This document shows, in pieces, positions 2,253-58,961 of a DNA stretch of 64,000 nt. Source of the DNA: a virus (lineage: Duplodnaviria; Heunggongvirae; Uroviricota; Caudoviricetes); IMG/VR virus record IMGVR_UViG_3300029610_000357, positions 52,285 to 116,284 of that record; one strand, written 5' to 3'. The number at the start of each line of letters is the position of its first letter. The first letter of the stretch is position 1. Made by a program: the position numbers and the translations under genes. The notes below the pieces were generated by a model, which did no database searches, had not been told where the DNA came from, and saw nothing but the letters and a program-made list of their open reading frames with translations.

Positions 2253-2262
2253 TTGGACATAG

Positions 2263-2335
<73 letters not shown>

Positions 2336-2519
2336 ACAAAAAGAGTACATTGTAACTACCAACAATGTACTCAAACTTAGAAAAGAGGTATAAATTATGA
2401 TTCCTACAAGAAATCTTAATAGCTTTGTAAATCTTTCTGAGGTATGAAACAACAGTAGAAAAGCGCAATAATCAAAACTTCACAAGAAAGGAGATAATAT
2501 GATTCCTCAGAAAGATTAA

Positions 2520-2591
2520 CAGGGATAACTGGATTTGAACCAGTGAATACAGCAGTCAAAGTGCTGTGCCTTACCGCTTGGCGATATCCCT
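2520..2591 (-). tRNA. tRNA-Gln(UUG)
   Basis: Acceptor AGGGATA/TATCCCT, anticodon arm CAGCA-CTTTGAC-TGCTG, T-arm ACTGG-TTCAAAT-CCAGT. Confidence 0.9.
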
Positions 2592-3204
2592 ATATGTATT
2601 TTAATTTTAAAGCAGGTCTTCACCTTACAGTCATTTGTGGAATAGTTTGTTCTGCAACATAGTAGATAAGTCTGAGCTTCGAGGAGCGACCTCTAACTTC
2701 TTACCTAAGTCTAAAAGACCAGTTCTATGACATGATCAATACATGCAATGTCAACCCACCATTCAGAATTAAGTTTTATTGTTATATACTCTATTAGCAT
2801 ATATATTCATTTTGAATTTGAACTTGCCCTTAACTGACTTGAGCGACATACCAGCGACTTTTCTTATACACTGTCTTTTGAACAGCTTCACATCAAACTA
2901 CATTATTTGGCTTTTCCACCTTTTACGTACCTGCCAGAGTACGCATTGAAGTGGATTATTCTCCACAGGAGCGTCTATTGTTGTAGCGAAAAGTTCTGTG
3001 CGTTAACCAGACCAAAATGCTGCACAATATCCATTTGCTTGAGAGTTTCTCTCTTGTCCATATCAGATCACTCCGACATAAAAAGAGACACAAAGAACGT
3101 ATCCGTACAATGTATCTCTCCAATTCGACATATGTGCCTAGAATATCTCTCGGACTCATGGCATTGAGTTTTATAACCGAGTTGCTTATGTTTTAAAATA
3201 CAAA
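2592..3204 (-). other. 613-nt ORF-free spacer inside the tRNA array (possible co-transcribed structured RNA)
   Basis: Flanked directly by tRNA-Gln and tRNA-Trp. Only short overlapping shadow ORFs without RBS, and no tRNA fold found by eye. Confidence 0.3.
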
Positions 3205-3276
3205 CACCCTAAGCTGGATTTGAACCAGCACGAACGGTTTTGGAGACCGTCATTCTACCAACTAAATTATTAGGGC
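3205..3276 (-). tRNA. tRNA-Trp(CCA)
   Basis: Acceptor GCCCTAA/TTAGGGT, anticodon arm ACGGT-CTCCAAA-ACCGT, T-arm GCTGG-TTCAAAT-CCAGC. Confidence 0.85.
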
Positions 3277-3283
3277 GATATTA

Positions 3284-3357
3284 CTGACATGACAGGACTC
3301 GAACCTGCAACACCAACGTCCGTAGCGTTGTGCTCTGTCCAGTTGAGCTACATGTCA
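3284..3357 (-). tRNA. tRNA-Arg(ACG)
   Basis: Acceptor TGACATG/CATGTCA, D-arm GCTC..GAGC, anticodon arm CAACG-CTACGGA-CGTTG, T-loop TTCGAGT. Confidence 0.9.
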
Positions 3358-3570
3358 ATAACGAATATGTATTTACCTCTCATACGTACACACTGGCGAG
3401 ACAATACATATTTCTAAAAAGCAACAGTGTGTAAGTATTGCTTTTCTAGGGCGAACTGAAGTGATGAACTCCATCAGAATATCAGAAGAGGTATACATTC
3501 CAATATCCACCAACCATCAGGGTGTTCGCATATTTTTTGGTTAATCTATCGTATAGTTACTAACCTAATC

Positions 3571-3656
3571 ATCCCTGTTGAGGGAATCGAACCCACTCGT
3601 GACCGAAGCCGCAAAATTTACAGTTTTGCCTGTCTCCTTAGCAGTATAAACAGGGA
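3571..3656 (-). tRNA. tRNA-Tyr(GUA), type II with long variable arm
   Basis: Acceptor TCCCTGT/ACAGGGA, anticodon arm GCAAAA-CTGTAAA-TTTTGC, variable arm GGCTTCGGTCAC, T-loop TTCGATT. Confidence 0.8.
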
Positions 3657-3695
3657 TATTAGCCCACAAGTCCGAAGAACATTGTAGGACAAACA

Positions 3696-3770
3696 TCACA
3701 CCAACGAGAGTCGAACTCGTATTGCATCCGTGAAAGGGATGTGTCCTAAAACCATTTAGACGATGGTGCG
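3696..3770 (-). tRNA. tRNA-Glu(UUC)
   Basis: Acceptor CGCACCA/TGGTGTG, Glu-type D-arm GTCT..AGGAC, anticodon arm CATCC-CTTTCAC-GGATG, T-arm ACGAG-TTCGACT-CTCGT. Confidence 0.85.
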
Positions 3771-3776
3771 ATTTAG

Positions 3777-3868
3777 CGTACGGACTGGGCTACGACCCCA
3801 GGATACACATGTTCGTATGTATACAGGATTAGCAATCCTGCGCATTAAACCAGCTCTGCCACCCGTAC
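3777..3868 (-). tRNA. tRNA-Ser(GCU), type II
   Basis: Acceptor GTACGGG/TCCGTAC, anticodon arm CAGGA-TTGCTAA-TCCTG, 22-nt variable arm, T-arm CTGGG-GTCGTAG-CCCAG (non-canonical T-loop). Confidence 0.8.
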
Positions 3869-24054: not shown

Positions 24055-25347
24055 GTGAACGAGATCAATAAAAGGAAATTAGAACTGTTCATGGATGATC
24101 AGCTATGGAGACAAAATATCACACATCAGCAAAGCAAAGGTGTACATAGAGATGTATTAAGAATTGTATGTGATCCAGAATACAAAGCACGGCTTTTAGG
24201 AATGATCTGGGATGGTAATTACAAAATTGCACCTCCGTATGTAGTAGAAATTCCTAAAGACAATGGAAAAGTAAGAGAAGTGTATGTTAATCAGCCAATT
24301 GACAGATTTGTTATGACACAAATCAATTATGTTTATATGCAATTATATGGTCATATGATTCATCCAAGATGTGTGTCTTATCAGAAAGGAATTGGAGTTA
24401 AAAATATCGTAGATGATATTTGTATGGAGCTTAAGAAACATCAAGGAGCTGTTGGGTATAAGGTAGACATTAGTAAGTATTTTGACAGTGTAAGCCGTGA
24501 GGTACTTAATGAAATGATTGATAAAATTGATACAGGAAGTCCTATTGATCAGATTGTAAGAGATTATTATATGGATGATTGTATCATTGATCAGAAAAGA
24601 AATGTTATTGAGAAATACAAAAGTATGACTCAAGGTTGTGCAGTGTCTACATTCTTTGCCAATTGTGTTTTAAGAGATGTAGACGAAGAGTTAAGCAAGA
24701 TGGATATTATTTATTACAGATATTCAGATGATATCTTGATGGTTGGTAAGGATGCAGATAAGGCTTTGAAGATGTTAGGAGAGATGTTAGAAACAAAAGG
24801 ACTTACATTAAATCCCAAAAAGGTAGAAACAGTCAGTACAGATCAATGGTTTACATTCTTAGGAGTGCGAATTAATGGACAGAAGAGAAGTTTTTCTGAA
24901 AAGAGCTTAAAGGAATTTCAGAAACACATTAGAGAATATGTAAATAAGAAAGCAGGAATTGGTAGCGTAAAAGTTGCAATCAGACAAATTAATAAATATC
25001 TGTATTTGAATTTCTTAAGGAATCCGAATGAGTTTGGTTGGGCTGAGTATTTCTTTAGTATTGTGAATGTCGAAGATGATATTAAGACATTAGATATGTG
25101 GATTAAAGATACACTCAGAGGTTTGTATACTGGTAAGAGAAAGGTTGGTGGTCTTGGTGTAAATAAAGTAACTGATGAATGTGGAGTATTAAGAGGGAAA
25201 GGAAAAAACGTAAGTGCAAATCTTGGTAAAACAAGAAGCGATAAAGACATTTTAGAAGAAGCAGGATATATCAGCATGAATGAAATGTATCATCAGTTTA
25301 GATACAGTAAAGAATTGTACAGGGCTTCATTGACGGCTTTATCTTAA
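24055..25347 (+). CDS. reverse transcriptase (stand-alone, class unassigned)
   Basis: RT motifs IPKDNGKVREVY, YKVDISKYFDSV, QGCAVSTFFANCVL, YYRYSDDILMVG (YxDD), LTLNPKKVE, FTFLGVRI, plus a ~140-aa C-terminal extension. GTG start 15 nt after the last KNNYY gene. Confidence 0.9.
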   Translation: MNEINKRKLELFMDDQLWRQNITHQQSKGVHRDVLRIVCDPEYKARLLGMIWDGNYKIAPPYVVEIPKDNGKVREVYVNQPIDRFVMTQINYVYMQLYGHMIHPRCVSYQKGIGVKNIVDDICMELKKHQGAVGYKVDISKYFDSVSREVLNEMIDKIDTGSPIDQIVRDYYMDDCIIDQKRNVIEKYKSMTQGCAVSTFFANCVLRDVDEELSKMDIIYYRYSDDILMVGKDADKALKMLGEMLETKGLTLNPKKVETVSTDQWFTFLGVRINGQKRSFSEKSLKEFQKHIREYVNKKAGIGSVKVAIRQINKYLYLNFLRNPNEFGWAEYFFSIVNVEDDIKTLDMWIKDTLRGLYTGKRKVGGLGVNKVTDECGVLRGKGKNVSANLGKTRSDKDILEEAGYISMNEMYHQFRYSKELYRASLTALS

Positions 25348-28722: not shown

Positions 28723-28740
28723 TTAAAGATTGATATTGAG

Positions 28741-28769
28741 AGAGACACTTCGTATGAGGTGTCTCTTTT
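28741..28769 (+). terminator. rho-independent terminator
   Basis: AGAGACAC-loop-GTGTCTCT followed by TTT. Confidence 0.7.
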
Positions 28770-28807
28770 AGTATATAAATTTTTTAGAAAGGAGATGAAA
28801 AAGGAAG

Positions 28808-29596
28808 ATGGCAACAGAGTTTGACAAACGAATGAAAGCTTATGAATGTGTCTCAAGACAGTACTTAACAAGAAGAGTACCAGTTGCGATCAGAGTAGAT
28901 GGAAAGGCATTTCATACATTCACTAGAGGGTTTCAGAAACCGTTCGATGAAGTGCTTAGCAATGCAATGCAGGCCACAATGATGAAAATGTGTAGACAGA
29001 TTCAAGGTTGTGTGTTTGCTTACACACAGAGTGATGAAATTACATTTATTCTTATCGATTATCAGAAGCTAAATTCTGATGGCTGGTTTAACTACCGTAC
29101 TGATAAGATGTGTAGCATTGCAGCGAGTATGGCTACTATGGAGTTCAATAAGGTATTTAGTGCTTTTGTTTATGGATTTAAGGTAAACAAGGGAGAAGAC
29201 ATATCAAGTGAAGATATGGAAGTGCTTAAAGCCTATGAGAAATCTAAAGAACGTGGAGCTATGTTTGATGCTAGAGCATTTTCAATTCCAAAAGAAGAAG
29301 TTACGAATCTAATTTATTGGAGACAGCAAGACGCTATGAGGAATGCAGTTCAGATGGTTGGACAAGCATTTTATTCCCACAAAGAGCTTCAGGGTGTTAA
29401 TTGTGAGATGCTTAAAGAAATGTTACTGGCTGATAAGGGAATTGATTGGGATAAGATTCCTGTGAAATATCAGAGAGGTAGCTGTTGTGTCAAGGTTGAT
29501 GGTGAATGGACTATTGACAATAACATTTCTATCTTCAGAGGTAGTGACAGAGAGCAAATTGATAAGCTTGTGTTTGTTGAGAGTGAAGAGAACTGA
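28808..29596 (+). CDS. Thg1-like protein (tRNA-His guanylyltransferase family, 3'-5' polymerase)
   Basis: FDKRMKAYE...PVAIRVDGKAFHTFTRGFQKPFD...AYTQSDEITFIL matches the Thg1 catalytic pattern (RxDG..F, SDE). Confidence 0.75.
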   Translation: MATEFDKRMKAYECVSRQYLTRRVPVAIRVDGKAFHTFTRGFQKPFDEVLSNAMQATMMKMCRQIQGCVFAYTQSDEITFILIDYQKLNSDGWFNYRTDKMCSIAASMATMEFNKVFSAFVYGFKVNKGEDISSEDMEVLKAYEKSKERGAMFDARAFSIPKEEVTNLIYWRQQDAMRNAVQMVGQAFYSHKELQGVNCEMLKEMLLADKGIDWDKIPVKYQRGSCCVKVDGEWTIDNNISIFRGSDREQIDKLVFVESEEN

Positions 29597-29665
29597 GCGT
29601 CTGATTAGACGTGCAGATATAGAAATGAACTGTCGCAGAGTTGCGACGGTTGGAAAGGAGAAGGG

Positions 29666-29827
29666 ATGGAAATAAAAGGTGACACTATAAAAACCGTAAA
29701 AGAAGTAAATCCAAGTAAGTTTGAAGAAGAAGTTTCTAATTTGATTAATAAAGGATACAAATTAGAAGCTTCTTCTTGTAATAGTACTTATTGGAAAGCT
29801 ATTTTAGTTTTAGAGAGAAAGGAGTAG
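29666..29827 (+). CDS. small ORF (53 aa)
   Basis: Own translation MEIKGDTIKTVKEVNPSKFEEEVSNLINKGYKLEASSCNSTYWKAILVLERKE*; strong GGAAAGGAGAAGGG RBS. Confidence 0.45.
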   Translation: MEIKGDTIKTVKEVNPSKFEEEVSNLINKGYKLEASSCNSTYWKAILVLERKE

Positions 29828-29829
29828 AG

Positions 29830-30573
29830 ATGAATGAAGTAGAAACAAAAGAGATCCCGTTTTATGGAGATACGCTTTTAGGTGTAAAAGATGAGGATGG
29901 AGAAGTTTGGTTGGCAATCAGAAGCACATGTATACAGCTAGGGTTTAATGAAAGACGAGCAAGGGCACAAAGAGAGAAAATTCAAGCTGACAAAGTCTTA
30001 TCCAAAGGTGGCCGAAATTTTGGCCTCCTTACAGCAGGGGGTAAACAAGAAACATTTTGCTTACATGAAACATATGTGCCACTTTGGTTAGCTAAAATTA
30101 CATTAACCAAAAAGATGGAAGAGGATATTCCCAATGTTGTTGAAAAGCTAGAAAGATATCAACTTGAAGCAAGAGATGTTTTACATAGGGAAATGTATGG
30201 CACAGAAGAACAGAAAGAAAAGCTTCACAATAACCTAGGTTTGCAAGGAGAGATTATACAACTAAAAGATGCTGTAGATTCTGTAACTGAACAGCTTAAA
30301 GATCAAACAGAGAGATTAGATTTAGTAATGAACAATATGACTATTGATACTAAAAAGCAGAGTCGTATTCAAAAGGCCGCAAAGGAAAGAGTAAGTGAAT
30401 TACTTGGTGGAGCTCATTCAGGACTGTATAAAGCTAAAGGTGCTTTGTATTTTGCAAATCTGTGGCATCAATTGAGATTAGAATTTGAATGTGGAACTTA
30501 TAAAGATCTTAGTCCAAACGATTTTGATGATGCTATGAGCTTTATTCAGAGTTGGACATATGTAGAAAGGTAG
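29830..30573 (+). CDS. antirepressor-like protein (P22 AR N-terminal-like plus ORF6C-like C-terminal domain)
   Basis: IPFYGDTLLGVKDEDGEVWLAIRSTCIQLGF. The C-terminus RVSELLGGAHSGLYKAKGALYFANLWHQLRLEFECG is paralogous to 36072..36815. Confidence 0.55.
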   Translation: MNEVETKEIPFYGDTLLGVKDEDGEVWLAIRSTCIQLGFNERRARAQREKIQADKVLSKGGRNFGLLTAGGKQETFCLHETYVPLWLAKITLTKKMEEDIPNVVEKLERYQLEARDVLHREMYGTEEQKEKLHNNLGLQGEIIQLKDAVDSVTEQLKDQTERLDLVMNNMTIDTKKQSRIQKAAKERVSELLGGAHSGLYKAKGALYFANLWHQLRLEFECGTYKDLSPNDFDDAMSFIQSWTYVER

Positions 30574-30584
30574 AGGGAAGAAAG

Positions 30585-31553
30585 ATGAGAACAATTACAA
30601 ATACACATACAGGAAAAATTATTTCTGATACAGATTTAACATTGGAATATCTTTATGTTGGAGATTATGGAAAAGAAAATAACATTAAAGCAGATTTTCT
30701 TGGATATAACAAACGTATTGAGAAAGTAGAACATAAACCTGTTAATGTAAAAGAAAAATTAGTTGTTACTGTTTCTTCCCAGAAAGGTTGTCCAATGCAT
30801 TGTAATTTCTGTGATTGTCCTAAGCTTGGATTTAAAGGAAATGCATCTTTAGCTGAGCTCATGGCTGAAATCACATCTGGAATCGCTTTATCTGGAGTAA
30901 AAGATGGAGAACGACTAAATGCGCATTATGCCAGAATGGGTGAACCTACATTTAATCCAAATGTAATTGTTTCTGCAAGACAGGTTGCTCTAATGTTGGC
31001 TGATCCTGATGGAGATATTCATTTTGATACATATCACCCTGTTGTTTCTACAATGATGCCAAAAGCAAATCAGAACTTGAAAGCGTTTTTATTCAAATGG
31101 ATAGCAACAGGTTTCCAATACGGTGGAGAAGATGGTTTCGGTCTTCAGTTTTCTATCAATACATTAGATGAAGAACAGCGAAATGAAATGTTTAGAGAAT
31201 GTTCTTTGTCGTTAGAAGAAATTGGAGCTATTATTGACGATCTTCCAATGCCAAAGAAACGCAAATATACATTAAATTTTGCAGTTACATCTGAAAGCAA
31301 CTTGGATGTTGATTTAATGAACAAGTATTTTGACAAAGAAAAGTGCATTGTTAAGATTACTCCAATTCATGAAACAGTTGAAGCTGTCGATGAAGGTTAT
31401 GAGATTGTTACAGATTTTGATGTTTATGAAAAATTTGAACAGCCTTTAGTAGAAGACGGTTGGGATGTAATTGTATTTGTTCCATCAAAAGAAGAAGATG
31501 CAGACAGAATTACATGTGGAAATTCATTGATTGCATTGAACAAAGATGAATAG
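30585..31553 (+). CDS. radical SAM enzyme, RlmN/Cfr-like RNA methyltransferase
   Basis: VSSQKGCPMHCNFCDCPKLGFKGNASLAEL (CxxxCxxC in RlmN-like context), MGEPTFNPN, C-terminal ITCGNSL (compare aaCGQL). Confidence 0.55.
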   Translation: MRTITNTHTGKIISDTDLTLEYLYVGDYGKENNIKADFLGYNKRIEKVEHKPVNVKEKLVVTVSSQKGCPMHCNFCDCPKLGFKGNASLAELMAEITSGIALSGVKDGERLNAHYARMGEPTFNPNVIVSARQVALMLADPDGDIHFDTYHPVVSTMMPKANQNLKAFLFKWIATGFQYGGEDGFGLQFSINTLDEEQRNEMFRECSLSLEEIGAIIDDLPMPKKRKYTLNFAVTSESNLDVDLMNKYFDKEKCIVKITPIHETVEAVDEGYEIVTDFDVYEKFEQPLVEDGWDVIVFVPSKEEDADRITCGNSLIALNKDE

Positions 31554-31574: not shown

Positions 31575-32450
31575 ATGTTAATGTTTTTTAGAGTGTTGTT
31601 AATTGTTGCAACCATTGTGTTAATTGTTGTTGGGTGTTTTGATTCCAATAAAGAGGAATCAAAGGAATCCAAGAAAGGTGCTTTATGGGCTTTAGTTCCT
31701 ATTGTGATTTTTGTACTTACATTGTGTGTTGTATATGTACCATCTAATAATGTAGGAATCCGTTGGTCAGCGTTCAGTGGAACTAGCAGCAAGACATTAA
31801 ACGAAGGAATTACATTCAAAAGTCCAATTGATAAGGTATTTCTTATTCCAACCACTGTAGAAGAGAGAACAATCAAAAACGTAAATGTGCAGACTAAAGA
31901 TGCACAGTTTGTCAGAGCTGAAGTGAATGTCAAGTTCCGTGTTAATCAGAAAGACGCCTTTAAGGTATACAAGAGATACACAACACTTGACAACCTAAAG
32001 CAGAATATCATTAGCAACTATGCACAGAAGAGTATTGAAACAGTTGTAACTCAGTACAATGTGATTGACACTCTTGGAGCTAAGAAAAATGAAATCTACG
32101 CCTTAGCTACAAAAGATTTACAGAACATGCTTAAAGATGAGGGTGTTGAGCTTGTGCAGCTGACTATCAAAGACATGAACGCAGGTAGTGAGATTGAAAA
32201 AGCGATCGCTGATGAGGCAGTTGCCAAGAAACGTGTAGAAACAGCAGAGCAGAATCGTCTTAAAGCTAAGAAAGATGCTGAGACTAAGGTAGTTAATGCT
32301 AAAGCAGAGGCAGATGCAAACAAAATCTTAGAGAAACAGTTGACAAATAAAATCTTAATTCAGCAGTGGATTGAGAAATGGAACGGAGAAGTTCCTAAAG
32401 TATCCGGAGATAGTAAATCTATGATTAATATTCAGGATCTCTTGAATTAG
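31575..32450 (+). CDS. SPFH/band-7 (prohibitin/HflK-like) membrane protein
   Basis: N-terminal TM helices, then VGIRWSAFSG..LNEGITFKSPIDKV..V.TKD.Q.V...V.V.FRV and a coiled-coil tail. Confidence 0.7.
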   Translation: MLMFFRVLLIVATIVLIVVGCFDSNKEESKESKKGALWALVPIVIFVLTLCVVYVPSNNVGIRWSAFSGTSSKTLNEGITFKSPIDKVFLIPTTVEERTIKNVNVQTKDAQFVRAEVNVKFRVNQKDAFKVYKRYTTLDNLKQNIISNYAQKSIETVVTQYNVIDTLGAKKNEIYALATKDLQNMLKDEGVELVQLTIKDMNAGSEIEKAIADEAVAKKRVETAEQNRLKAKKDAETKVVNAKAEADANKILEKQLTNKILIQQWIEKWNGEVPKVSGDSKSMINIQDLLN

Positions 32451-32481
32451 TATTAAGCCGGCTCGTAAGAGCTGGCATCTT

Positions 32482-32631
32482 GGGGACATAGCTTAATAGG
32501 TAAAGCAAAACTATATTTTTCCATAAAGAACTTAAAACTAAAATTTTCATATTAAATATAAACATTTTGTACCTCCCTATTGTAATAAAATAACACTTAT
32601 ATTTATGTGGGTTCGAGTCCCACTGTCCCCA
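32482..32631 (+). tRNA. tRNA-like gene interrupted by a ~75-nt AT-rich insertion; anticodon unresolved
   Basis: GGGGACA-TA-GCTT-AATAGGTA-AAGC ... GTGGG-TTCGAGT-CCCAC-TGTCCCC-A. Acceptor, D- and T-arms are perfect, but no 5-7-5 anticodon arm can be drawn. Confidence 0.45.
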
Positions 32632-33834: not shown

Positions 33835-34746
33835 ATGGATAGAACAGACCAAACAGCAATTATGGAATCCGATGCAGTAGATTTGAATCAGCTAAAACAC
33901 AAAATTTATCAAGAAGCAATTAGAGATATCGGCCAATCAGGATATGAAGCCCATATGCGTGATTTATTTGGTCGTCCAGTACTTGATTTTGCAAAAACAC
34001 TTGTTATAAATCTTCCGGGTTCCTGTTATGCAAATTGTCCTTATTGTATTGATAAAGGCTTACGCAAAAATGTTATGGACTATGATGATTTTCTCGAAAC
34101 ATGTGAGATTGTATTGAAAGAAAAACATGATTTTAATGAAGTTTCTATTACGGGAGGGAGTTTACCTTCTGACAAATTTAATGAGTTGATAGACATTATA
34201 CAGAAGTATTGTCCAGATGTAAAAATCACATGGAATACAAATGGGGCAAACATAAATAGTTCATACAACATATCGCACATTAAGTATATTAACCTACATA
34301 GAAATTCAGCAGATGATAAGACCAATAAAGAACTATTTTATACTGACACAGAAATCATATCCATTGAAGATTTTAAGCAGTTTGCTGAGAATAAGCTTTG
34401 TATAAGAGTAACTGTTGATAAGGATTTTGATATAGATGAGTATGTAAAATATAAAACCCCAATGTATCTTAATCGTTTGTTGCCAGGTAATACTGAGACA
34501 GAAAAGGTATTTAATAAGGTAAAAACAGCTATTAACATTACTGAAGATACCGATGTGCGTCGAAGAAATCATTACATAAATGGAATATATAAAGATATTC
34601 CTGTTAGATTATGTGTTGGAGATCATCTTGCAAAGCATGTACCCAATAAATATCCCGCATGGCTTAATGTAGTTATTATCCATCGTAGTGGAGTGGTTGC
34701 AGGGTCTTGGTATGAAGATGATAAGTTTTTATATAAAAGGAAGTAG
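33835..34746 (+). CDS. radical SAM domain protein (family unassigned, no SPASM-type Cys clusters)
   Basis: LPGSCYANCPYCIDK (CxxxCxxC), VSITGGS (GGE-like). Confidence 0.65.
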   Translation: MDRTDQTAIMESDAVDLNQLKHKIYQEAIRDIGQSGYEAHMRDLFGRPVLDFAKTLVINLPGSCYANCPYCIDKGLRKNVMDYDDFLETCEIVLKEKHDFNEVSITGGSLPSDKFNELIDIIQKYCPDVKITWNTNGANINSSYNISHIKYINLHRNSADDKTNKELFYTDTEIISIEDFKQFAENKLCIRVTVDKDFDIDEYVKYKTPMYLNRLLPGNTETEKVFNKVKTAINITEDTDVRRRNHYINGIYKDIPVRLCVGDHLAKHVPNKYPAWLNVVIIHRSGVVAGSWYEDDKFLYKRK

Positions 34747-35065: not shown

Positions 35066-35656
35066 ATGAGTAGAGTAAAAGAAATCAAAAAGCAGACAGA
35101 TAACAAGTTTTTGAATCTGTATGACTATACTGTGGTCGATAAGAATGGAAATGAGCATCCATATTATGTAGCTAGCAGACATAATGAAGAAGAGTTGGTA
35201 GCTAAAGTAGGAGAGCCTAAAGCAGACGCAGTGCTAATGTATGCTTATTATGGTGAGGAAAGAGATAAGTTGGTATTGATCAGACAGTTTAGATATCCAG
35301 TAAATGATTACATATATGAACTTCCTGCGGGTCTTGTAGATGAGGGAGAGACAGTTGTAGAAGCTGCAATTAGAGAAATGAAAGAAGAAACCGGTTTAGA
35401 CTTTAAGCCATGTGATGATATGTCTGGATTAAATAGACCGTGTTTTTCAAGTGCTGGTATGACAGATGAATGTGTTAGTACTGTGTATGGGATTGCAACT
35501 GGTGAGATTGATTTAAGTAAGTTAGAAGCGAATGAAGATTTGACAGTACAGATCGTAGATGTGGATGAAGCAGTGAGGATATTAGCAGAAGAGAAGTTGG
35601 GAATCAGGACTTATTATCTTCTATTGTTGTTTATTGCTGGGTCTAAGAATAGATAG
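35066..35656 (+). CDS. Nudix hydrolase (ADP-ribose pyrophosphatase-like)
   Basis: Nudix box GLVDEGETVVEAAIREMKEETGL. Confidence 0.85.
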   Translation: MSRVKEIKKQTDNKFLNLYDYTVVDKNGNEHPYYVASRHNEEELVAKVGEPKADAVLMYAYYGEERDKLVLIRQFRYPVNDYIYELPAGLVDEGETVVEAAIREMKEETGLDFKPCDDMSGLNRPCFSSAGMTDECVSTVYGIATGEIDLSKLEANEDLTVQIVDVDEAVRILAEEKLGIRTYYLLLLFIAGSKNR

Positions 35657-39375: not shown

Positions 39376-39942
39376 ATGAAACCATATGATACAGGACTTG
39401 TTTGCGGAAGATTCCAGACATTTCATAAAGGACATGAGAGACTGGTTGATACCGGTCTTTTATTATGTGACCGTTTATTAATTTTAATTGGATCAGCACA
39501 AGAGTGTGGGACAGAAAGGAATCCATTCAACATTAACACAAGAACAAAAATTCTAAAGGAGATCTATGGAGACCGACCAGAAGTAATGATCTATGGATTA
39601 GCTGATATGACAGATGAAAATGATATCTGTCCTGAGTGGGGTAAATATTTATTAAACAATGTAGATCGTTATATCCACAAGAACCCCGAGATTATGATTT
39701 ATGGGAACGATGAAAGTCGAAGTGGTTGGTTTGACAAGAAAGACTTAGCTAATACGGCAGAGCTGATCGTAAATAGACAGGACTTGCCAATCAGTGCAAC
39801 TATGGTAAGAGAAGCTATGGCAAAAGATGATCGCAAGAAATGGATGAGTTTAGTGAATCCAAGATTACATAAAATGTATGATGAGCTGCGAGCAGAACTT
39901 ATGAGTGTGCCATTTTATCAGGAGTTGAATAAAGGAGAGTGA
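39376..39942 (+). CDS. nicotinamide-nucleotide adenylyltransferase (NadM/archaeal-type NMNAT)
   Basis: GRFQTFHKGH ((H/T)xGH nucleotidyltransferase motif) and ISATMVRE (ISxTxxR). Confidence 0.8.
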   Translation: MKPYDTGLVCGRFQTFHKGHERLVDTGLLLCDRLLILIGSAQECGTERNPFNINTRTKILKEIYGDRPEVMIYGLADMTDENDICPEWGKYLLNNVDRYIHKNPEIMIYGNDESRSGWFDKKDLANTAELIVNRQDLPISATMVREAMAKDDRKKWMSLVNPRLHKMYDELRAELMSVPFYQELNKGE

Positions 39943-42181: not shown

Positions 42182-43096
42182 ATGAAGTGTTTTTATCATT
42201 TAGATTTAGATGGGAAGTGTGCGGGCTATTTAGTATGGCATTATGCTTGTTTAGGAGAGGAAGATGAAAACCCAGAGAATTTTATTAAGATTAATTATGG
42301 CATGGAGTTTCCATTAGACAAAATTAAAAGAGATGAAAGAGTGTTTATTGTTGATTTTAGCATTGAACCGGAAGATATGAAAGAACTCTTAAAAATTACA
42401 AAAAATGTAGTTTGGATTGATCATCATAAAACGACTATTGAAAAATATAAGGATTTTGAAAGCTATATTCCAGGGATAAGAATGACAGGGCCTGGAATAT
42501 CAGGGGCTTCATTGACATGGTGGTATTTCAATAATAATGCTCTCTTCGATGGAATGGAAAGGGTACAAGGGTTACAGCCAAAAGAAGATGAAGATTGGGA
42601 TGAAGATATGCCCCTTGCTCTTTTATTAGTAGCTGACTGGGATACATGGACATTCAATTATAGAGAGGAAACTAAATACTTTCATACAGCATTTGAAATG
42701 TTGGAATATGAGCCTTGGCAATTTGGCGAATGGTTCGAGCTTATAAAAGATCCTTATGTTCTTATTGAGCAAGGACGACTTCTTTATAAGTACAAACAGA
42801 AACAGGCAGAAGAATATATCAGTTCAAAGGGATTCGCTGTAGAGTTTGAGGGATATAAGTGTTTCGCTGTGAATCATGGATTGATTAATTCAGATTTCTT
42901 CGAGTCAGTTGATGATAAGTATGATATCTATATTGGATTTGCTTATAATGGTGGAAGCAAGAGATGGAGCTATAGCTTGAGAGCTGCGAATGATGATGTG
43001 GACGTAAGTGAGATCGCTATTAAGTACGGTGGTGGCGGACACAAAGGAGCTGCAGGATTCGCAAGTGATAAGTATGTTTTAGGAGAGATGAGCTAA
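42182..43096 (+). CDS. DHH/DHHA1 phosphoesterase (NrnA/RecJ-like)
   Basis: HLDLDG, VWIDHHKT (DHH), GGGGHKGAAG (DHHA1). Confidence 0.8.
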   Translation: MKCFYHLDLDGKCAGYLVWHYACLGEEDENPENFIKINYGMEFPLDKIKRDERVFIVDFSIEPEDMKELLKITKNVVWIDHHKTTIEKYKDFESYIPGIRMTGPGISGASLTWWYFNNNALFDGMERVQGLQPKEDEDWDEDMPLALLLVADWDTWTFNYREETKYFHTAFEMLEYEPWQFGEWFELIKDPYVLIEQGRLLYKYKQKQAEEYISSKGFAVEFEGYKCFAVNHGLINSDFFESVDDKYDIYIGFAYNGGSKRWSYSLRAANDDVDVSEIAIKYGGGGHKGAAGFASDKYVLGEMS

Positions 43097-54629: not shown

Positions 54630-56039
54630 ATGACAGATTTAGAATTTTATTCATTACACAATCATACTGAATATTCAAATATAAGGTTAATTGATTGTAT
54701 CAATAAGATTCCTATGTTAATCAAAAGAGCGGTTAAATTGGGCATGAAAGGAATTGCGATCACTGATCATGAAACATTAAGTGGTCATATTCAGGCAATG
54801 ATTTATGTCCGTGATGAGAAAAAGAAAGGTAACATTCCCAAGGATTTTAAATTGATTCTTGGGAATGAAATCTATCTAGTCAATGGAACCGCAGATTACA
54901 TAAAGGAAAATTTTAAAGCTGGAGATGGGAAGTTGTTTTATCATTACATTCTTTTAGCAAAGGATGAAATTGGTCATAGACAGCTTAGAGAATTGAGTTC
55001 AAATGCATGGGACAGATCTTTTCAAACAGGAAAAATGACAAGAGTTCCAACTGAGAAATCAGACCTTGAGAAGATCATAAGAAAAGAACCGGGTCATTTG
55101 ATTGCATCGACAGCTTGCTTAGGCGGAGAGCTTCCTACTTTGATTATGCAGATGGAAGAAGCTCAAAGTGAACTGGAAGTATATGAAGCCAAATGTAAAA
55201 TTGATGATTTCGTTCGATGGAACATTGATTTGTTTGGTGAAGATTTCTTTTTTGAAATGCAACCGGGAGCATCTGAAGAACAAGAAAAGGTTAATAAATG
55301 GTTACTTAAATTGTCAAAAGTTTATGGTGTTAAGTGTATCATAACAACCGATTCACATTATTTATCTAAGAATTCTCAGATGATTCATAAAGCGTATTTG
55401 CAAAGTAAAGAGGAAGAAAGAGAAGTAGATGATTTCTATCAGACTACATATTTAATGGAAATTCCAGAAATGTACGATTACATGAAGTACTTTGACGAAG
55501 AAACTATAGCAGAAGCTATCAACAATACAGCGATCATTGGAAACAAGATTAAAGAGTATTCATTAAGTTGTTCTACGATCGTCCCTGAAGCAGAAGTACC
55601 AAAATTTGAAGTAGAAAATTATTTTGAAAAATATTATCAGAGATTTACAACACTGCAGGAATACGCAAATAGCAGCAACATCTATGACAGATATCTGTTG
55701 TACTTAATTGAAAAGGGATATCAGAAGAAAGAAATTCATGCAAAAGTTCGCAGGAATGACTTTACCGAAGAGCAAAAAGTGGAACGAATAGCTATTGAAT
55801 TACAAGAGATGGCATTGGTTACAGAGAAGATTAAGTCAAGTATTTCTTCCTATTATATATCAACCTTAGAACTAATCAATATCATGTGGAAAGAGGGAGA
55901 TAGCTTGGTAGGGGTAGCCAGAGGATCAGTTACTGGTATGTATACAATGTATTTAATTGATTTAATACAAATGAATCCTTTAGATTGGGGATTGCCTCAT
56001 TGGAGACATATTTCCCATGAGAAAGCAGAGTTATCGGAT
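54630..56039 (+). CDS. dnaE: DNA polymerase III alpha (DnaE-like), exon 1 (PHP domain)
   Basis: FYSLHNHTEYS..., ITDHETLSG. The exon ends ...HEKAELSD; the track ORF continues into the intron and stops. Confidence 0.85.
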
Positions 56040-56387
56040 TTGAAAAAGTCCGCTTATATAGTGATATATATGACAAAATGTGGTGAACCCATAAATATGG
56101 GGTGTGCGTAAGTGCTAACGGTATCAGTTAAATAAGGCAAGGCTCGAATACGCTGACTAAGAGAACCTACGGTCTTGAAAGAGATAGCAGGCAATACCGT
56201 GCTAAGTAAAGAAGTGTAACGACTAAATTGGACAAACTTATAAAACTGTCCTAAGAGGAATAAGGTGAAAGTCCTTATCTGTAGTGCCACACACGAGAAA
56301 TCCTTGTATAAGCAAGCCAATGGATTAACATTGGGTGATGAGATAGTCTAGTCCGTACAGAAATATCACGAAAGTGACGGTAGATCG
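56040..56387 (+). ncRNA. group I self-splicing intron, ORF-less (348 nt)
   Basis: 5' exon CGGAU pairs with the intron guide GUCCG (10 nt in), giving a U.G wobble at the splice site. The intron ends GGUAGAUCG and contains GAGAUAGUCUAGUCC. Joining 56039/56388 restores ELSD-VDIDS (the PDIDID region) in frame with 56559..58961. Confidence 0.75.
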
Positions 56388-58961
56388 GTTGATATTGATT
56401 CACAAAAGAATCGTAGAGAACAAATTATCTCTGCTGTAAAAGATCGAAAAGGAGAAAGAAGAGTATTAAATTGTTGTACATTCAAAACAGAAGGTAGCAA
56501 ATCGGCTATTTTAACTTCATGTAGAGCTTTAGGAATTGATCCAGATACTTCTAGTTATTTGGCTGGAATGGTACCAGTAACAAGAGGTGCTACATGGAGT
56601 TTACATGATTGTATATACGGAAACGAAGAAAAAGAACGAGAAGCAGTGCCGGGGTTTGAGAATGAAATGAGAAGTCATGATCAATTACTTGACATTGCAA
56701 TGGGAATTGAAGGACTAATTTGTGGAAGATCTATTCATGCTTCTGCAGTGTATGTCTTTAATGAAGATTTTATTGCTCATAATGCTCGAATGAAAGCCCC
56801 AAATGGAGTGTTAACAACTCAGTTTAATATGGCTGATTCAGATGAATGTGGTGGGTTAAAGATGGATTTCTTAACGATTGAAGCGCTTGACAAGATCCGC
56901 CTGACAATGGAACAGCTCATTGATGCAGGGTATATGGAATGGCAAGGATCATTAAGAGAAACATATGATAAATATCTTCATCCAGATGTTCTTGATTATG
57001 AAACTAGAGAAATGTGGGATTGGGTAGCAGAAAACAAAGTTGTGGATCTGTTTCAGTTTAATACACAGACAGGATTACAGGCAGCAAGACGTATCCAACC
57101 TCATAGCTTGGAAGAATTGGCTGCAGCAAACTCTATTATGAGACTTATGGTAACAGAAGAGGGAGCTGAACAGCCGATTGATACTTATATTAGATTTAAA
57201 AATGATATTGGCCAATGGTATGACTTGATGAGAACGAAGTATCATTTGACTGATCATGAAATTGAAATTTTAGAGAAATACCTTAAATCCAATTATGGTG
57301 TAGGTGATACTCAGGAAATTGTAATGGAAATCAGTATGGATAAAGAGATTGCTGATTTTAGTGTTGCTGATAGCAATAAGCTGAGGAAAAGTATTGCAAA
57401 GAAGAAACCAGCTTTACAGCAAGCAATGAAAGAGCAATTTTTTGAGAGGGGAAAAGAAAACCATGCTTCAGATAATCTGTTGAACTACGTTTGGAAAGAA
57501 GTTGTAGGGAAACAGCTTGGGTATTCCTTTTCTAAGAATCATACCTATCCATACAGTGCTATAGGATTGCAGGAGTTAAATCTTGCATATCATTATCCGA
57601 TTATTTATTGGAATACAGCTTGCTTAACCGTAAATGCAGGAGCTGATGAAGAATCTAAAGGATCTAAGCAGTCTACAGATTACGGAAAAGTAGCAACGTC
57701 TATAGCACAAATGCAGAAGAGAGGTATTAAAATTCAAGCTCCACTGATTAACAAAGCGGAATTAGGATTTAAAGCCGATGAAGAGAACAATGCAATCTTA
57801 TTTGCATTAAAGAGTATTTCAGGAATCGGTGATGATGTAGTAGAAATTATAAGACAAGCAAGGCCATTCGCTTCATTTGAAGATTTTTATGAAAGAATGG
57901 TTGCCACAAAGCTAGTCAAAACAGGTCAGGTAATTCAGTTGATTAAAGCAGGTTGCTTTGATGAATTTGATGAAAACAGAGTAGATTTGCTTTATACGAT
58001 CGTAAGATTATGTAAATGTAATCTAATCTCAAGTCTGACTAAATCACAATTGAATCGTATGCAGGAATTACAATTTATGTATCCAGAGCTTAATCTTATT
58101 CCAGATGAAGTTTTAGATGGAATTCAAGTATACAATTTCTCACAGTATGTAAAAGAATTGAAAGTTGTAAAGAAATATATTGATCCGTCAAGAAAAATGT
58201 TGAAGTGTGGCTATCATGATGAAATCATTGAACTAGATGATAGAGCAATGCAATTTTTCATAAATCACTACACAGAAGATTCCATCTATGACGTTAAAGA
58301 TGAATATTACTTGATTTACAAAAAGAAATTCAATAAAGAAACTGAAAAGAAATTAGAGTCTCTTAGAGAATATCTGGCTAACCCGAATACATTACTTAAG
58401 TATAATAAAGCTCTCGTGAAAGATGAGGCCAAGAAAGTGGTTACAGGAACCACATCTCATATGGAAATGGAATCACTGTGTGTTTATGTACATGAACATG
58501 AATTGGCAGACCTTAACAAAGATGAATTCAATATCGTCAATTTCTTTAATCTTTCAGAAGAACCAGTAGTTGCATCTACGTATAAAAGAAAGGTTAAGAG
58601 GGTTGAGAATGGACAAGAGATTCAAGAAGTCAAAGAGTTCCCTAAGTATTTTATTAGTAAGATCTGGGGAACTGTCTTAGACAAGAATAAGGATCGACAT
58701 ACGGTTACATTATTGACCCCTGAGGGAGTTGTAAATGTGAAATATACCAAAGGAGCTTTCTTACATTATAACAAGAAGACCTCAATAGAAGAGTCTTGGT
58801 TCAAGAGAGGCCAAATAATAATGGTTACTGGGTATCGCAATGGCGATATGTTCAGATGCTATAACTATGGAGACACAATCTTCAAACATACTACATCATT
58901 GATTACAAACATCGGAGAGAAAGGAGTAGAGGTAATGACAGAAAGGATGAGAGAAGCATGA
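56388..58961 (+). CDS. dnaE: DNA polymerase III alpha (DnaE-like), exon 2
   Basis: Own translation from 56388: VDIDSQKNRREQIISAVKDRKGERRVLNCCTFKTEGSKSAIL..., 57 codons upstream of and in frame with the track ORF. Confidence 0.85.
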   Translation, partial: VDIDSQKNRREQIISAVKDRKGERRVLNCCTFKTEGSKSAILTSCRALGIDPDTSSYLAGMVPVTRGATWSLHDCIYGNEEKEREAVPGFENEMRSHDQLLDIAMGIEGLICGRSIHASAVYVFNEDFIAHNARMKAPNGVLTTQFNMADSDECGGLKMDFLTIEALDKIRLTMEQLIDAGYMEWQGSLRETYDKYLHPDVLDYETREMWDWVAENKVVDLFQFNTQTGLQAARRIQPHSLEELAAANSIMRLMVTEEGAEQPIDTYIRFKNDIGQWYDLMRTKYHLTDHEIEILEKYLKSNYGVGDTQEIVMEISMDKEIADFSVADSNKLRKSIAKKKPALQQAMKEQFFERGKENHASDNLLNYVWKEVVGKQLGYSFSKNHTYPYSAIGLQELNLAYHYPIIYWNTACLTVNAGADEESKGSKQSTDYGKVATSIAQMQKRGIKIQAPLINKAELGFKADEENNAILFALKSISGIGDDVVEIIRQARPFASFEDFYERMVATKLVKTGQVIQLIKAGCFDEFDENRVDLLYTIVRLCKCNLISSLTKSQLNRMQELQFMYPELNLIPDEVLDGIQVYNFSQYVKELKVVKKYIDPSRKMLKCGYHDEIIELDDRAMQFFINHYTEDSIYDVKDEYYLIYKKKFNKETEKKLESLREYLANPNTLLKYNKALVKDEAKKVVTGTTSHMEMESLCVYVHEHELADLNKDEFNIVNFFNLSEEPVVASTYKRKVKRVENGQEIQEVKEFPKYFISKIWGTVLDKNKDRHTVTLLTPEGVVNVKYTKGAFLHYNKKTSIEESWFKRGQIIMVTGYRNGDMFRCYNYGDTIFKHTTSLITNIGEKGVEVMTERMREA

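Follow-up and report, generated by a model that had tools for sequence, protein, structure and literature searches.

Large phages are known to harbor genes whose products restore damaged RNA ends. In a comparative study of jumbo phages, Thg1, RlaP, and the CCA-adding enzyme were described as RNA-end-restoring enzymes directed against host RNases (PMC7824862). The characterized bacterial Thg1-like proteins (TLPs) perform the templated 3'-5' repair of 5'-truncated tRNAs and do not establish tRNA-His identity (PMC3061083, PMC4820378), while RlaP extends damaged RNA at its 3' end by adding nucleotides and is required to restore the function of heavily damaged tRNA (PMC12776372). In this work, a region (positions 28808-31553) of a 64,000-nucleotide stretch of DNA, hereafter referred to as the window, was analyzed; it belongs to a virus of the Caudoviricetes (IMG/VR record IMGVR_UViG_3300029610_000357) and contains, on the same strand, a gene for a TLP and a gene for a radical S-adenosylmethionine (SAM) enzyme related to RlmN and Cfr.

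The region is best explained as a piece of a variable accessory-gene block of a large gut phage (contig of ~190 kb), harboring two separate RNA-oriented auxiliary genes and no single conserved system. The reading that we favor in more specific terms, and whose chances we consider about even, is that the two genes are loosely associated and concerned with RNA maintenance, the TLP rebuilding damaged tRNA 5' ends and the radical-SAM enzyme acting by methyl-cysteine chemistry on an RNA substrate, probably tRNA, in its repair or protection. A preliminary description of the region, made from the sequence alone, had recognized a Thg1-like polymerase and an RlmN/Cfr-like methyltransferase carried together with a set of tRNA genes; the observation was confirmed and its interpretation was partly supported by the analyses reported below. 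Both genes are far beyond chance open reading frames (ORFs).

The product of the first gene matches the Pfam Thg1 model (PF04446) with 110.4 bits, against a cut-off of 29.2 (E 7.8e-32), and PHROG 4717, "tRNA-His guanylyltransferase", with E 2.6e-78, which bears out its assignment to the Thg1-family 3'-5' polymerases. As to whether it is a Thg1 or a TLP, a placement that the preliminary description had asked for, the closest solved structure is the TLP of Bacillus thuringiensis (BtTLP; 4kgk, E 7.8e-50, 172.8 bits), whereas the Thg1 enzymes of yeast, human, and Candida reach 30-38 bits and an archaeal TLP 41 bits. In human Thg1, the metal-binding carboxylates are D29, D76, and E77. In the alignment of the phage protein with BtTLP, D31 (in IRVDGKAFH) and S75-D76-E77 (in TQSDEITF) correspond to identical residues, and D31, D76, and E77 are the predicted conserved metal-binding carboxylates of the phage enzyme. 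The two proteins (BtTLP, PDB 4KGK/4KGM) align over their full length, share the same acidic catalytic motifs, and both lack HINNLYN, the eukaryote-specific anticodon-recognition motif of Thg1 (PMC6471195), at whose site the phage protein reads LIYWRQQDAMRN, like BtTLP; they differ in that the phage TLP is phage-encoded and carries an insertion of ~30 residues (~118-150). The best match to BtTLP, together with the BtTLP-like stretch at the HINNLYN site, thus identifies the ORF, as far as its sequence can tell, as a bacterial-type TLP and not as a eukaryotic Thg1. Its ATG is preceded by the ribosome-binding site AAAGGAAG.

Phage TLPs have already been annotated in Bacillus, Fusobacterium, and Staphylococcus phages, and a phage TLP is ordinary for large phages, in which this type of RNA-repair gene is already known. 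By analogy with the characterized bacterial enzymes, BtTLP included, its activity and in vivo role would consist in the templated 3'-5' repair of 5'-truncated tRNA (PMC3061083, PMC3701042). The enzyme would activate the 5'-monophosphate of the truncated tRNA with ATP or GTP and would then add nucleotides in the 3'-to-5' direction, using the 3' strand of the acceptor stem as the template; as an outcome, tRNAs whose 5' ends had been damaged during infection would be restored. The suggestion that the phage might in this way counter host damage to tRNA, already advanced in the preliminary description, agrees with the jumbo-phage literature, where Thg1 has been proposed to restore RNase-damaged tRNA 5' ends (PMC7824862).

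The start of the second gene is most likely ATG 30585 rather than TTG 30552, since the ATG is preceded by GAGGGA and the homologs are 320-322 amino acids long; the cluster cysteines are numbered below on the 322-amino-acid form. The [4Fe-4S] motif CX3CX2C (C69-PMH-C73-NF-C76) is invariant or near-invariant in the family. The protein matches PHROG 24834, whose function is unassigned, with E 3.8e-77 (residues 29-327 vs. positions 22-322 of the 336 of the profile). At E<=1e-3, 5120 relatives were retrieved from the database; the PHROG 24834-type family is small and forms its own cluster, with 586 representatives at E<=1e-3 among 1.84 billion proteins. Pfam recognized in the protein no domain except Radical_SAM, and no dedicated NCBIfam model for the family was found.

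The relationship of this protein to RlmN and Cfr is real and specific at the superfamily level. As a single sequence it matches RlmN weakly and over residues ~55-147 only (PDB RlmN, E 5e-7). A profile built from 26 diverse homologs (alignment A1) matches in the PDB both RlmN (6fz6, E 2.8e-21) and Cfr (E 1.7e-18) over positions 38-296, spanning the whole radical-SAM core with the C-terminal CGQ included, the next radical-SAM chain being at E 0.23. When the AlphaFold model (predicted local distance difference test score of 86.7) was used as a Foldseek query, ranks 1-9 were all occupied by RlmN (E ~1e-8, TM 0.53-0.64), followed by MiaB at 4e-4, and the best matches among the BFVD viral structures were a COG0820 protein of an uncultured phage and a radical SAM of Pseudomonas phage 201phi2-1. 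Profile searches did not assign either ORF to unrelated families, Thg1 models being returned for the first and RlmN/Cfr only for the second. The phage protein has in common with RlmN (E. coli, PDB 3RFA/5HR6) and Cfr (PDB 9P0P) the CX3CX2C motif, the MGEP motif, and the C-terminal Cys-Gly pair, a conserved catalytic element of RlmN/Cfr. In particular, C311-G312 (in RITCGNSL) aligns with the CGQ of both enzymes, C311 being the equivalent of RlmN C355 and Cfr C338; this cysteine is present in 23 of the 26 diverse members and in all of the closer ones (59/59).

Beyond the superfamily level, on which the preliminary description was right both by profile and by fold, the enzyme departs from RlmN and Cfr and is an ortholog of neither. 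The single-sequence NCBIfam scores are 36.6 bits vs. a cut-off of 290 for RlmN (TIGR00048), 23.7 vs. 530 for CfrAB (NF000424), and 21.6 vs. 550 for rSAM_Cfr (TIGR04432), i.e., ~8-fold to >20-fold under the curated equivalog cut-offs. The resolving cysteine (RlmN C118, Cfr C105), located seven residues before the first cluster cysteine, is also absent: in the alignment to wild-type RlmN (3rf9), T62 takes the place of C118, and the column is occupied by I/T/N/V/A/S/D, with Cys in 0/26 diverse members. It is known that the E. coli RlmN C118A variant remains covalently cross-linked to tRNA (title of PDB 5HR6). Moreover, the matches start at RlmN residue ~87-108, the helical RNA-binding domain at the N-terminus of RlmN being missing, and the only ~55 residues preceding the radical-SAM core are predicted by AlphaFold to form beta strands.

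Because of the sub-cut-off scores, the absence of the N-terminal domain, and the absence of a C118 equivalent, the methylation of A2503 in 23S rRNA or of A37 in tRNA and the Cfr-like change in antibiotic sensitivity, both proposed in the preliminary description, cannot be inferred. That the protein is a functional RlmN or Cfr, methylating A2503 (at C2 or C8) and/or tRNA A37 and shifting antibiotic sensitivity, is thus highly improbable, even though RlmN and Cfr are its sole detectable relatives, the methyl-carrying Cys-Gly is conserved, and the pipelines of the Joint Genome Institute (JGI) label close homologs "23S rRNA (adenine2503-C2)-methyltransferase"; against it stand the sub-cut-off scores, the missing N-terminal domain and resolving cysteine, the limited extent of the single-sequence match, and the isolation of the family in its own small cluster. 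The automatic RlmN annotation of the gene is misleading. Pipelines give this name to an abundant phage family, and it is easily stretched to Cfr-type antibiotic resistance, neither label being justified. What emerges is a distinct, phage-wide offshoot of the RlmN/Cfr superfamily, in which the methyl-carrying cysteine has been kept and the product-releasing cysteine has been lost, so that the family is probably new in its substrate, in how its reaction is completed, or in both respects.

The genomic neighborhoods of the family were examined on 216 loci, corresponding to ~55 lineages at 75% identity. RlaP (PF10127) was found in five lineages (within 1 kb in four of the five), the CCA-adding enzyme in three, a tRNA gene within 500 nt in five, and Thg1 in four, that is, this phage, locus L024, whose Thg1 (50% identical) is located 370 nt upstream of its radical SAM (55% identical), and loci L113 and L220, where it is 7-8 kb away. 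In one locus (L207) the order is radical SAM, RlaP, CCA enzyme, and in another (L028) it is Metallophos, radical SAM, RlaP, CCA enzyme, tRNA array; a third (L219) has an array of 21 tRNAs that ends 113 nt before the start of the radical SAM, and in the T5-like Stenotrophomonas phage BUCTxx99 the radical-SAM gene lies within a tRNA array. The other recurrent neighbors are a Metallophos phosphoesterase (four lineages), SPFH (~4 lineages), DNA methylases (two families, four lineages each), and an NADPH-dependent flavin mononucleotide (FMN) reductase in three lineages (L119, L158, L237 and relatives), always 8-21 nt downstream, which is a plausible dedicated electron donor. Apart from the DNA methylases and the FMN reductase, RNA end repair is the only recurrent functional theme among the neighbors.

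The retention of the [4Fe-4S]/SAM core and of the C-terminal Cys-Gly would make a radical C-methylation based on a methyl-carrying cysteine (mCys), or a closely related radical addition, the most likely chemistry of the enzyme. On the basis of the recurring neighbors (RlaP, the CCA-adding enzyme, Thg1, and tRNA arrays) and of the FMN reductase as a plausible electron donor, its substrate would most likely be RNA, probably tRNA in the course of repair or protection, and not A2503 of 23S rRNA. The tRNA-maintenance theme of the preliminary description finds in these neighborhoods some independent support.

It might also be that the TLP, the radical SAM, and the tRNAs are functionally unconnected "moron" cargo gathered in one hypervariable region, an explanation that we consider unlikely. 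The two genes are not adjacent, as an anti-repressor-like gene and a small ORF are interposed; the phages with the nearest radical SAM (89% identical) have no Thg1 within 10 kb, and the Thg1 loci of other phages have within 10 kb neither such a radical SAM nor tRNAs, so that the pairing of the two genes, noted in the preliminary description, is not conserved. In addition, no neighbor family occurs in more than 4-5 of the 55 lineages, and the gene content shifts even among near-identical relatives. Nevertheless, Thg1 is rare in phages, and yet four lineages have it within 10 kb of a radical SAM of this family; in one of them (L024) it is very close although both proteins are only ~50-55% identical to those of the window; the proximity of RlaP, where present, and the recurrence of RNA end repair among the neighbors point in the same direction.

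Several observations weigh against an RNA-maintenance role of the two genes. The all-against-all clustering of neighbors, performed on 47 GTDB loci and then on the 216 loci, disclosed no universal partner gene; RlaP, the CCA enzyme, Thg1, or tRNA arrays are next to the radical SAM in 8/55 lineages, most loci having none of them, and the proximity to tRNA genes is weakly enriched after dereplication (4/52 clusters vs. 2.6% of control ORFs). The seven tRNA genes of the window are not carried together with the two genes, as had been proposed, being located ~25 kb away on the opposite strand; no mismatch was found in acceptor-stem pairs 1-3 of these tRNAs, whose normally paired stems give no sign that they need 5' editing by the TLP, and no tRNA-His is present in the window. 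As for the radical SAM, the loss of the resolving cysteine argues against an ordinary RlmN-type turnover on RNA, the RNA-binding domain of RlmN is missing, and the protein is very acidic (isoelectric point (pI) of 4.8, net charge of -19), the family median pI being 5.6-6.3. To these points the distribution of the more distant members has to be added. The stand-alone members (40-100% identity) occur in a wide variety of phages or prophages, including Bacteroides phage Versailles, the crAss-like Kehishuvirus, FelixO1-like Pectobacterium phages, T5-like Stenotrophomonas phages, large Vibrio and Aeromonas phages, a Moorella phage, and many gut-metagenome phages. The members with ~30% identity are chromosomal (Elusimicrobia, Thermotogae, Aminicenantes, and archaea) and are embedded in a conserved operon with an isochorismatase-like hydrolase and a thioredoxin-reductase (TrxR)-like flavoprotein (L055, L065, L076, L078, and other loci in the range L053-L083), of which no published description was found; fusions of radical SAM and isochorismatase also exist (P0227, P0252). 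At 33-39% identity, triple fusions were detected (P0133, P0141, P0142, P0161; loci L093 and L094), in which the radical SAM is preceded by an N-terminal QueT-like energy-coupling factor (ECF) S-component and followed by a C-terminal domain similar to the methylthioadenosine/S-adenosylhomocysteine (MTA/SAH) nucleosidase. Their QueT-like domain scores 37-40 bits vs. the Pfam QueT threshold of 33.7, and the contigs harboring them, obtained from two metagenome scans and one viral scan, are 1.8-2.5 kb only, with flanks that look chromosomal. Unlike RlmN and Cfr, members of the family do not occur as housekeeping genes, being found in phages, in isochorismatase/TrxR-like operons, and in transporter/nucleosidase fusions.

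The cellular relatives suggest small-molecule chemistry. One may accordingly ask whether the phage enzyme also acts on a small molecule, either a 7-deazapurine such as queuine or another imported metabolite, its proximity to Thg1 being incidental; this is the main alternative, which we regard as somewhat unlikely. The isochorismatase/TrxR-like operon, the isochorismatase fusions, the acidic character of the protein, and its lack of an RNA-binding N-terminal domain all favor it, as do the triple fusions, which parallel the organization of the queuine lyase QueL of Clostridioides difficile (UniProt Q186P0, InterPro IPR006638), a radical SAM encoded beside an ECF-type queuosine-precursor transporter and a nucleosidase (PMC11477304, PMC11570991); the two were likened by description only. 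The phage loci, in contrast with that of QueL, lack queuosine-salvage neighbors and a preQ1 riboswitch: the latter was found neither in 13 related loci nor upstream of the fusion gene, a QueT-like or nucleosidase gene occurs near stand-alone members in 0/173 loci, and no DpdA/TGT-like gene was recognized in the window. Furthermore, the fusions are distant from the phage radical SAM, and the fused nucleosidase, being similar to MTA/SAH nucleosidase (MTAN), may simply clear 5'-deoxyadenosine and SAH.

Returning to an RNA substrate, a more specific proposal can be framed from the Pnkp/Hen1 system of bacterial RNA repair. In that system, Hen1, a Rossmann-fold 2'-O-methyltransferase, protects the repaired tRNA from re-cutting by methylating the repair junction. 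On purely functional analogy, a methylase encoded beside end-repair enzymes could "immunize" the repaired molecules likewise, and within tRNA-repair modules the radical SAM could be the counterpart of Hen1; neither Pnkp nor RtcB nor an RNA ligase was recognized in the window. Host nucleases would cut tRNAs, RlaP, the CCA enzyme, or Thg1 would rebuild their ends, and the radical SAM would C-methylate a purine or, as an alternative, form a long-lived covalent enzyme-RNA adduct, no resolving cysteine being present. PHROG 24834 would then represent a new mCys-dependent radical-SAM branch within phage tRNA-repair modules, shielding repaired tRNA from re-cutting, a reading that we consider quite unlikely. 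The Thg1 of the window and the RlaP, CCA enzyme, and tRNA arrays that neighbor other members of the family are all components listed in the jumbo-phage repertoire of RNA-repair nucleotidyl transferases as counter-measures to host RNase effectors, whereas radical-SAM enzymes of any kind have 0 occurrences in that survey (Iyer et al. 2021, PMC7824862). The recurrence of the present family next to enzymes of RNA end repair offers a concrete, testable hypothesis for a missing step in the phage counter-defense against tRNA-cleaving host systems.

Two side observations concern phages bearing the radical SAM. In the Stenotrophomonas phage BUCTxx99 (L002) and in the Xanthomonas phage JGB6, the RlmN-like radical SAM is annotated in GenBank as "prohibitin family protein", apparently by mistake; in BUCTxx99, a genuine prohibitin gene lies 3.3 kb 3' of the radical SAM. 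In other related phages (L021, L143-L145, L153, L248), suppressor-type tRNAs were detected, whose anticodon is CUA (called "Pyl") or UUA ("Stop"), along with tRNAs having odd anticodon loops, which hints at stop-codon recoding in those phages.

The coordinates of the genes and other elements of the window are reported in Table 1. The region comprises four co-directional ORFs, the third opening at either 29791 or 29830 and the fourth at either 30552 or 30585. The terminator-like hairpin just upstream suggests that a new transcription unit opens with the Thg1-like gene; since no other plus-strand terminator-like site was found between this hairpin and the end of the SPFH gene, the five genes from the Thg1-like gene through SPFH may form one transcription unit. 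The anti-repressor-like protein is called as 247 amino acids in relatives, and a link of its gene to tRNA biology is not evident.

Table 1. Position of the genes and of the other elements of the window discussed in the text.
Feature	Position	Strand	Remarks
tRNA genes (7)	2262-3868	-	Thr-UGU, Gln-UUG, Trp-CCA, Arg-ACG, Tyr-GUA, Glu-UUC, Ser-GCU
ROOL RNA	2594-3205	-	Full-length; between tRNA-Gln and tRNA-Trp
Reverse transcriptase	24055-25347	+	RVT_1; PHROG 1423, E 9e-30
Terminator-like hairpin	28733-28774	+	19-pair stem, then T-rich tail; just 5' of the Thg1-like gene
Thg1-like protein (TLP), bacterial type	28808-29596	+	262 aa; putative 3'-5' nucleotidyl transferase or polymerase acting on tRNA 5' ends
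Small ORF	29666-29827	+	53 aa; weak DUF1737 match; a different small gene in its place in relative L089
Ant/KilAC-type anti-repressor-like protein	29830-30573	+	~247 aa; Pfam P22_AR_N 2.1e-17, ORF6C 1.7e-17; PHROG 524/463 anti-repressor
Radical-SAM enzyme (PHROG 24834)	30585-31553	+	322 aa (333 aa from TTG 30552); belongs to the RlmN/Cfr (class A radical-SAM methylase) superfamily as a divergent member truncated at the N-terminus
SPFH/Band-7 (prohibitin-like) membrane protein	31575-32450	+	Pfam Band_7 3.3e-28; PHROG 200; starts 22 nt 3' of the radical-SAM gene
Hydrophobic ORF	32425-32565	-	46 aa; GGGAGG-N6-ATG start
tRNA-like element	32482-32631	+	Rfam RF00005, 42.5 bits, E 1.5e-6; not called by ARAGORN
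Second radical SAM	33835-34746	+	CX3CX2C; weak MoaA-like N-terminus; no PHROG
NUDIX hydrolase	35066-35656	+	
NMNAT-like cytidylyltransferase	39376-39942	+	
DHH phosphoesterase	42182-43096	+	
DNA polymerase, N-terminal part	54630-56111	+	PHROG 405
DNA polymerase, C-terminal part	56559-58961	+	PHROG 405

The content of the window is that of a phage, with genes for a DnaB-like helicase, a primase, a split DNA polymerase, exonucleases, Sak4, and integrases, as well as several anti-repressors, a reverse transcriptase, and a sigma factor. Metagenomic and IMG/VR contigs up to 190 kb long show this gene order as well, with 97-100% protein identity, and the Thg1 and radical-SAM genes are jointly conserved (99%) in several metagenome or IMG/VR contigs of the same phage; the gene content of the region varies even between near-identical relatives. 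At the DNA level, a search of the reference phage collection revealed similarity for the Thg1 gene only (69-78%), indicating that the phage itself is not in that collection.

Regarding the tRNAs, the preliminary description had counted seven genes and two tRNA-like elements; all seven genes and one of the elements were retrieved, while the second element was not identified. The apparent 8-bp stems in five of the seven tRNAs are compatible with chance. The tRNA-like element has a perfect acceptor stem and intact D and T arms, with a 93-nt AT-rich insert in place of the anticodon arm; it is 97% conserved in relatives and restricted to this phage species, outside of which no uninterrupted version was found. 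On the opposite strand, the hydrophobic 46-amino-acid ORF (MFIFNMKILVLSSLWKNIVLLYLLSYVPKM...) overlaps the insert together with the 5' half of the tRNA-like element; it may encode a small membrane peptide or may have arisen by chance. The ROOL RNA located among the tRNA genes matches Rfam RF03087 with 306 bits vs. a gathering threshold of 99, over model positions 1-574.

Other minor observations concern the remaining part of the window. The second radical-SAM gene, for which searches against PDB, PHROG, and NCBIfam gave nothing informative, is missing from the near-identical relatives L089-L092 and thus sits on a small accessory island bounded by the SPFH and NUDIX genes. The reverse transcriptase gene, lying amid a run of small ORFs, is kept in relatives L090-L092, while L089 has another gene in its place; it might belong to a diversity-generating retroelement or be a defense-type reverse transcriptase. 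The NUDIX, NMNAT-like, and DHH genes downstream, together with a ThiF-like gene located upstream in relatives, may represent a nucleotide- or NAD-related auxiliary set. Lastly, the DNA polymerase is apparently split, its two ORFs matching the N- and C-terminal parts of the PHROG 405 polymerase profile, respectively.

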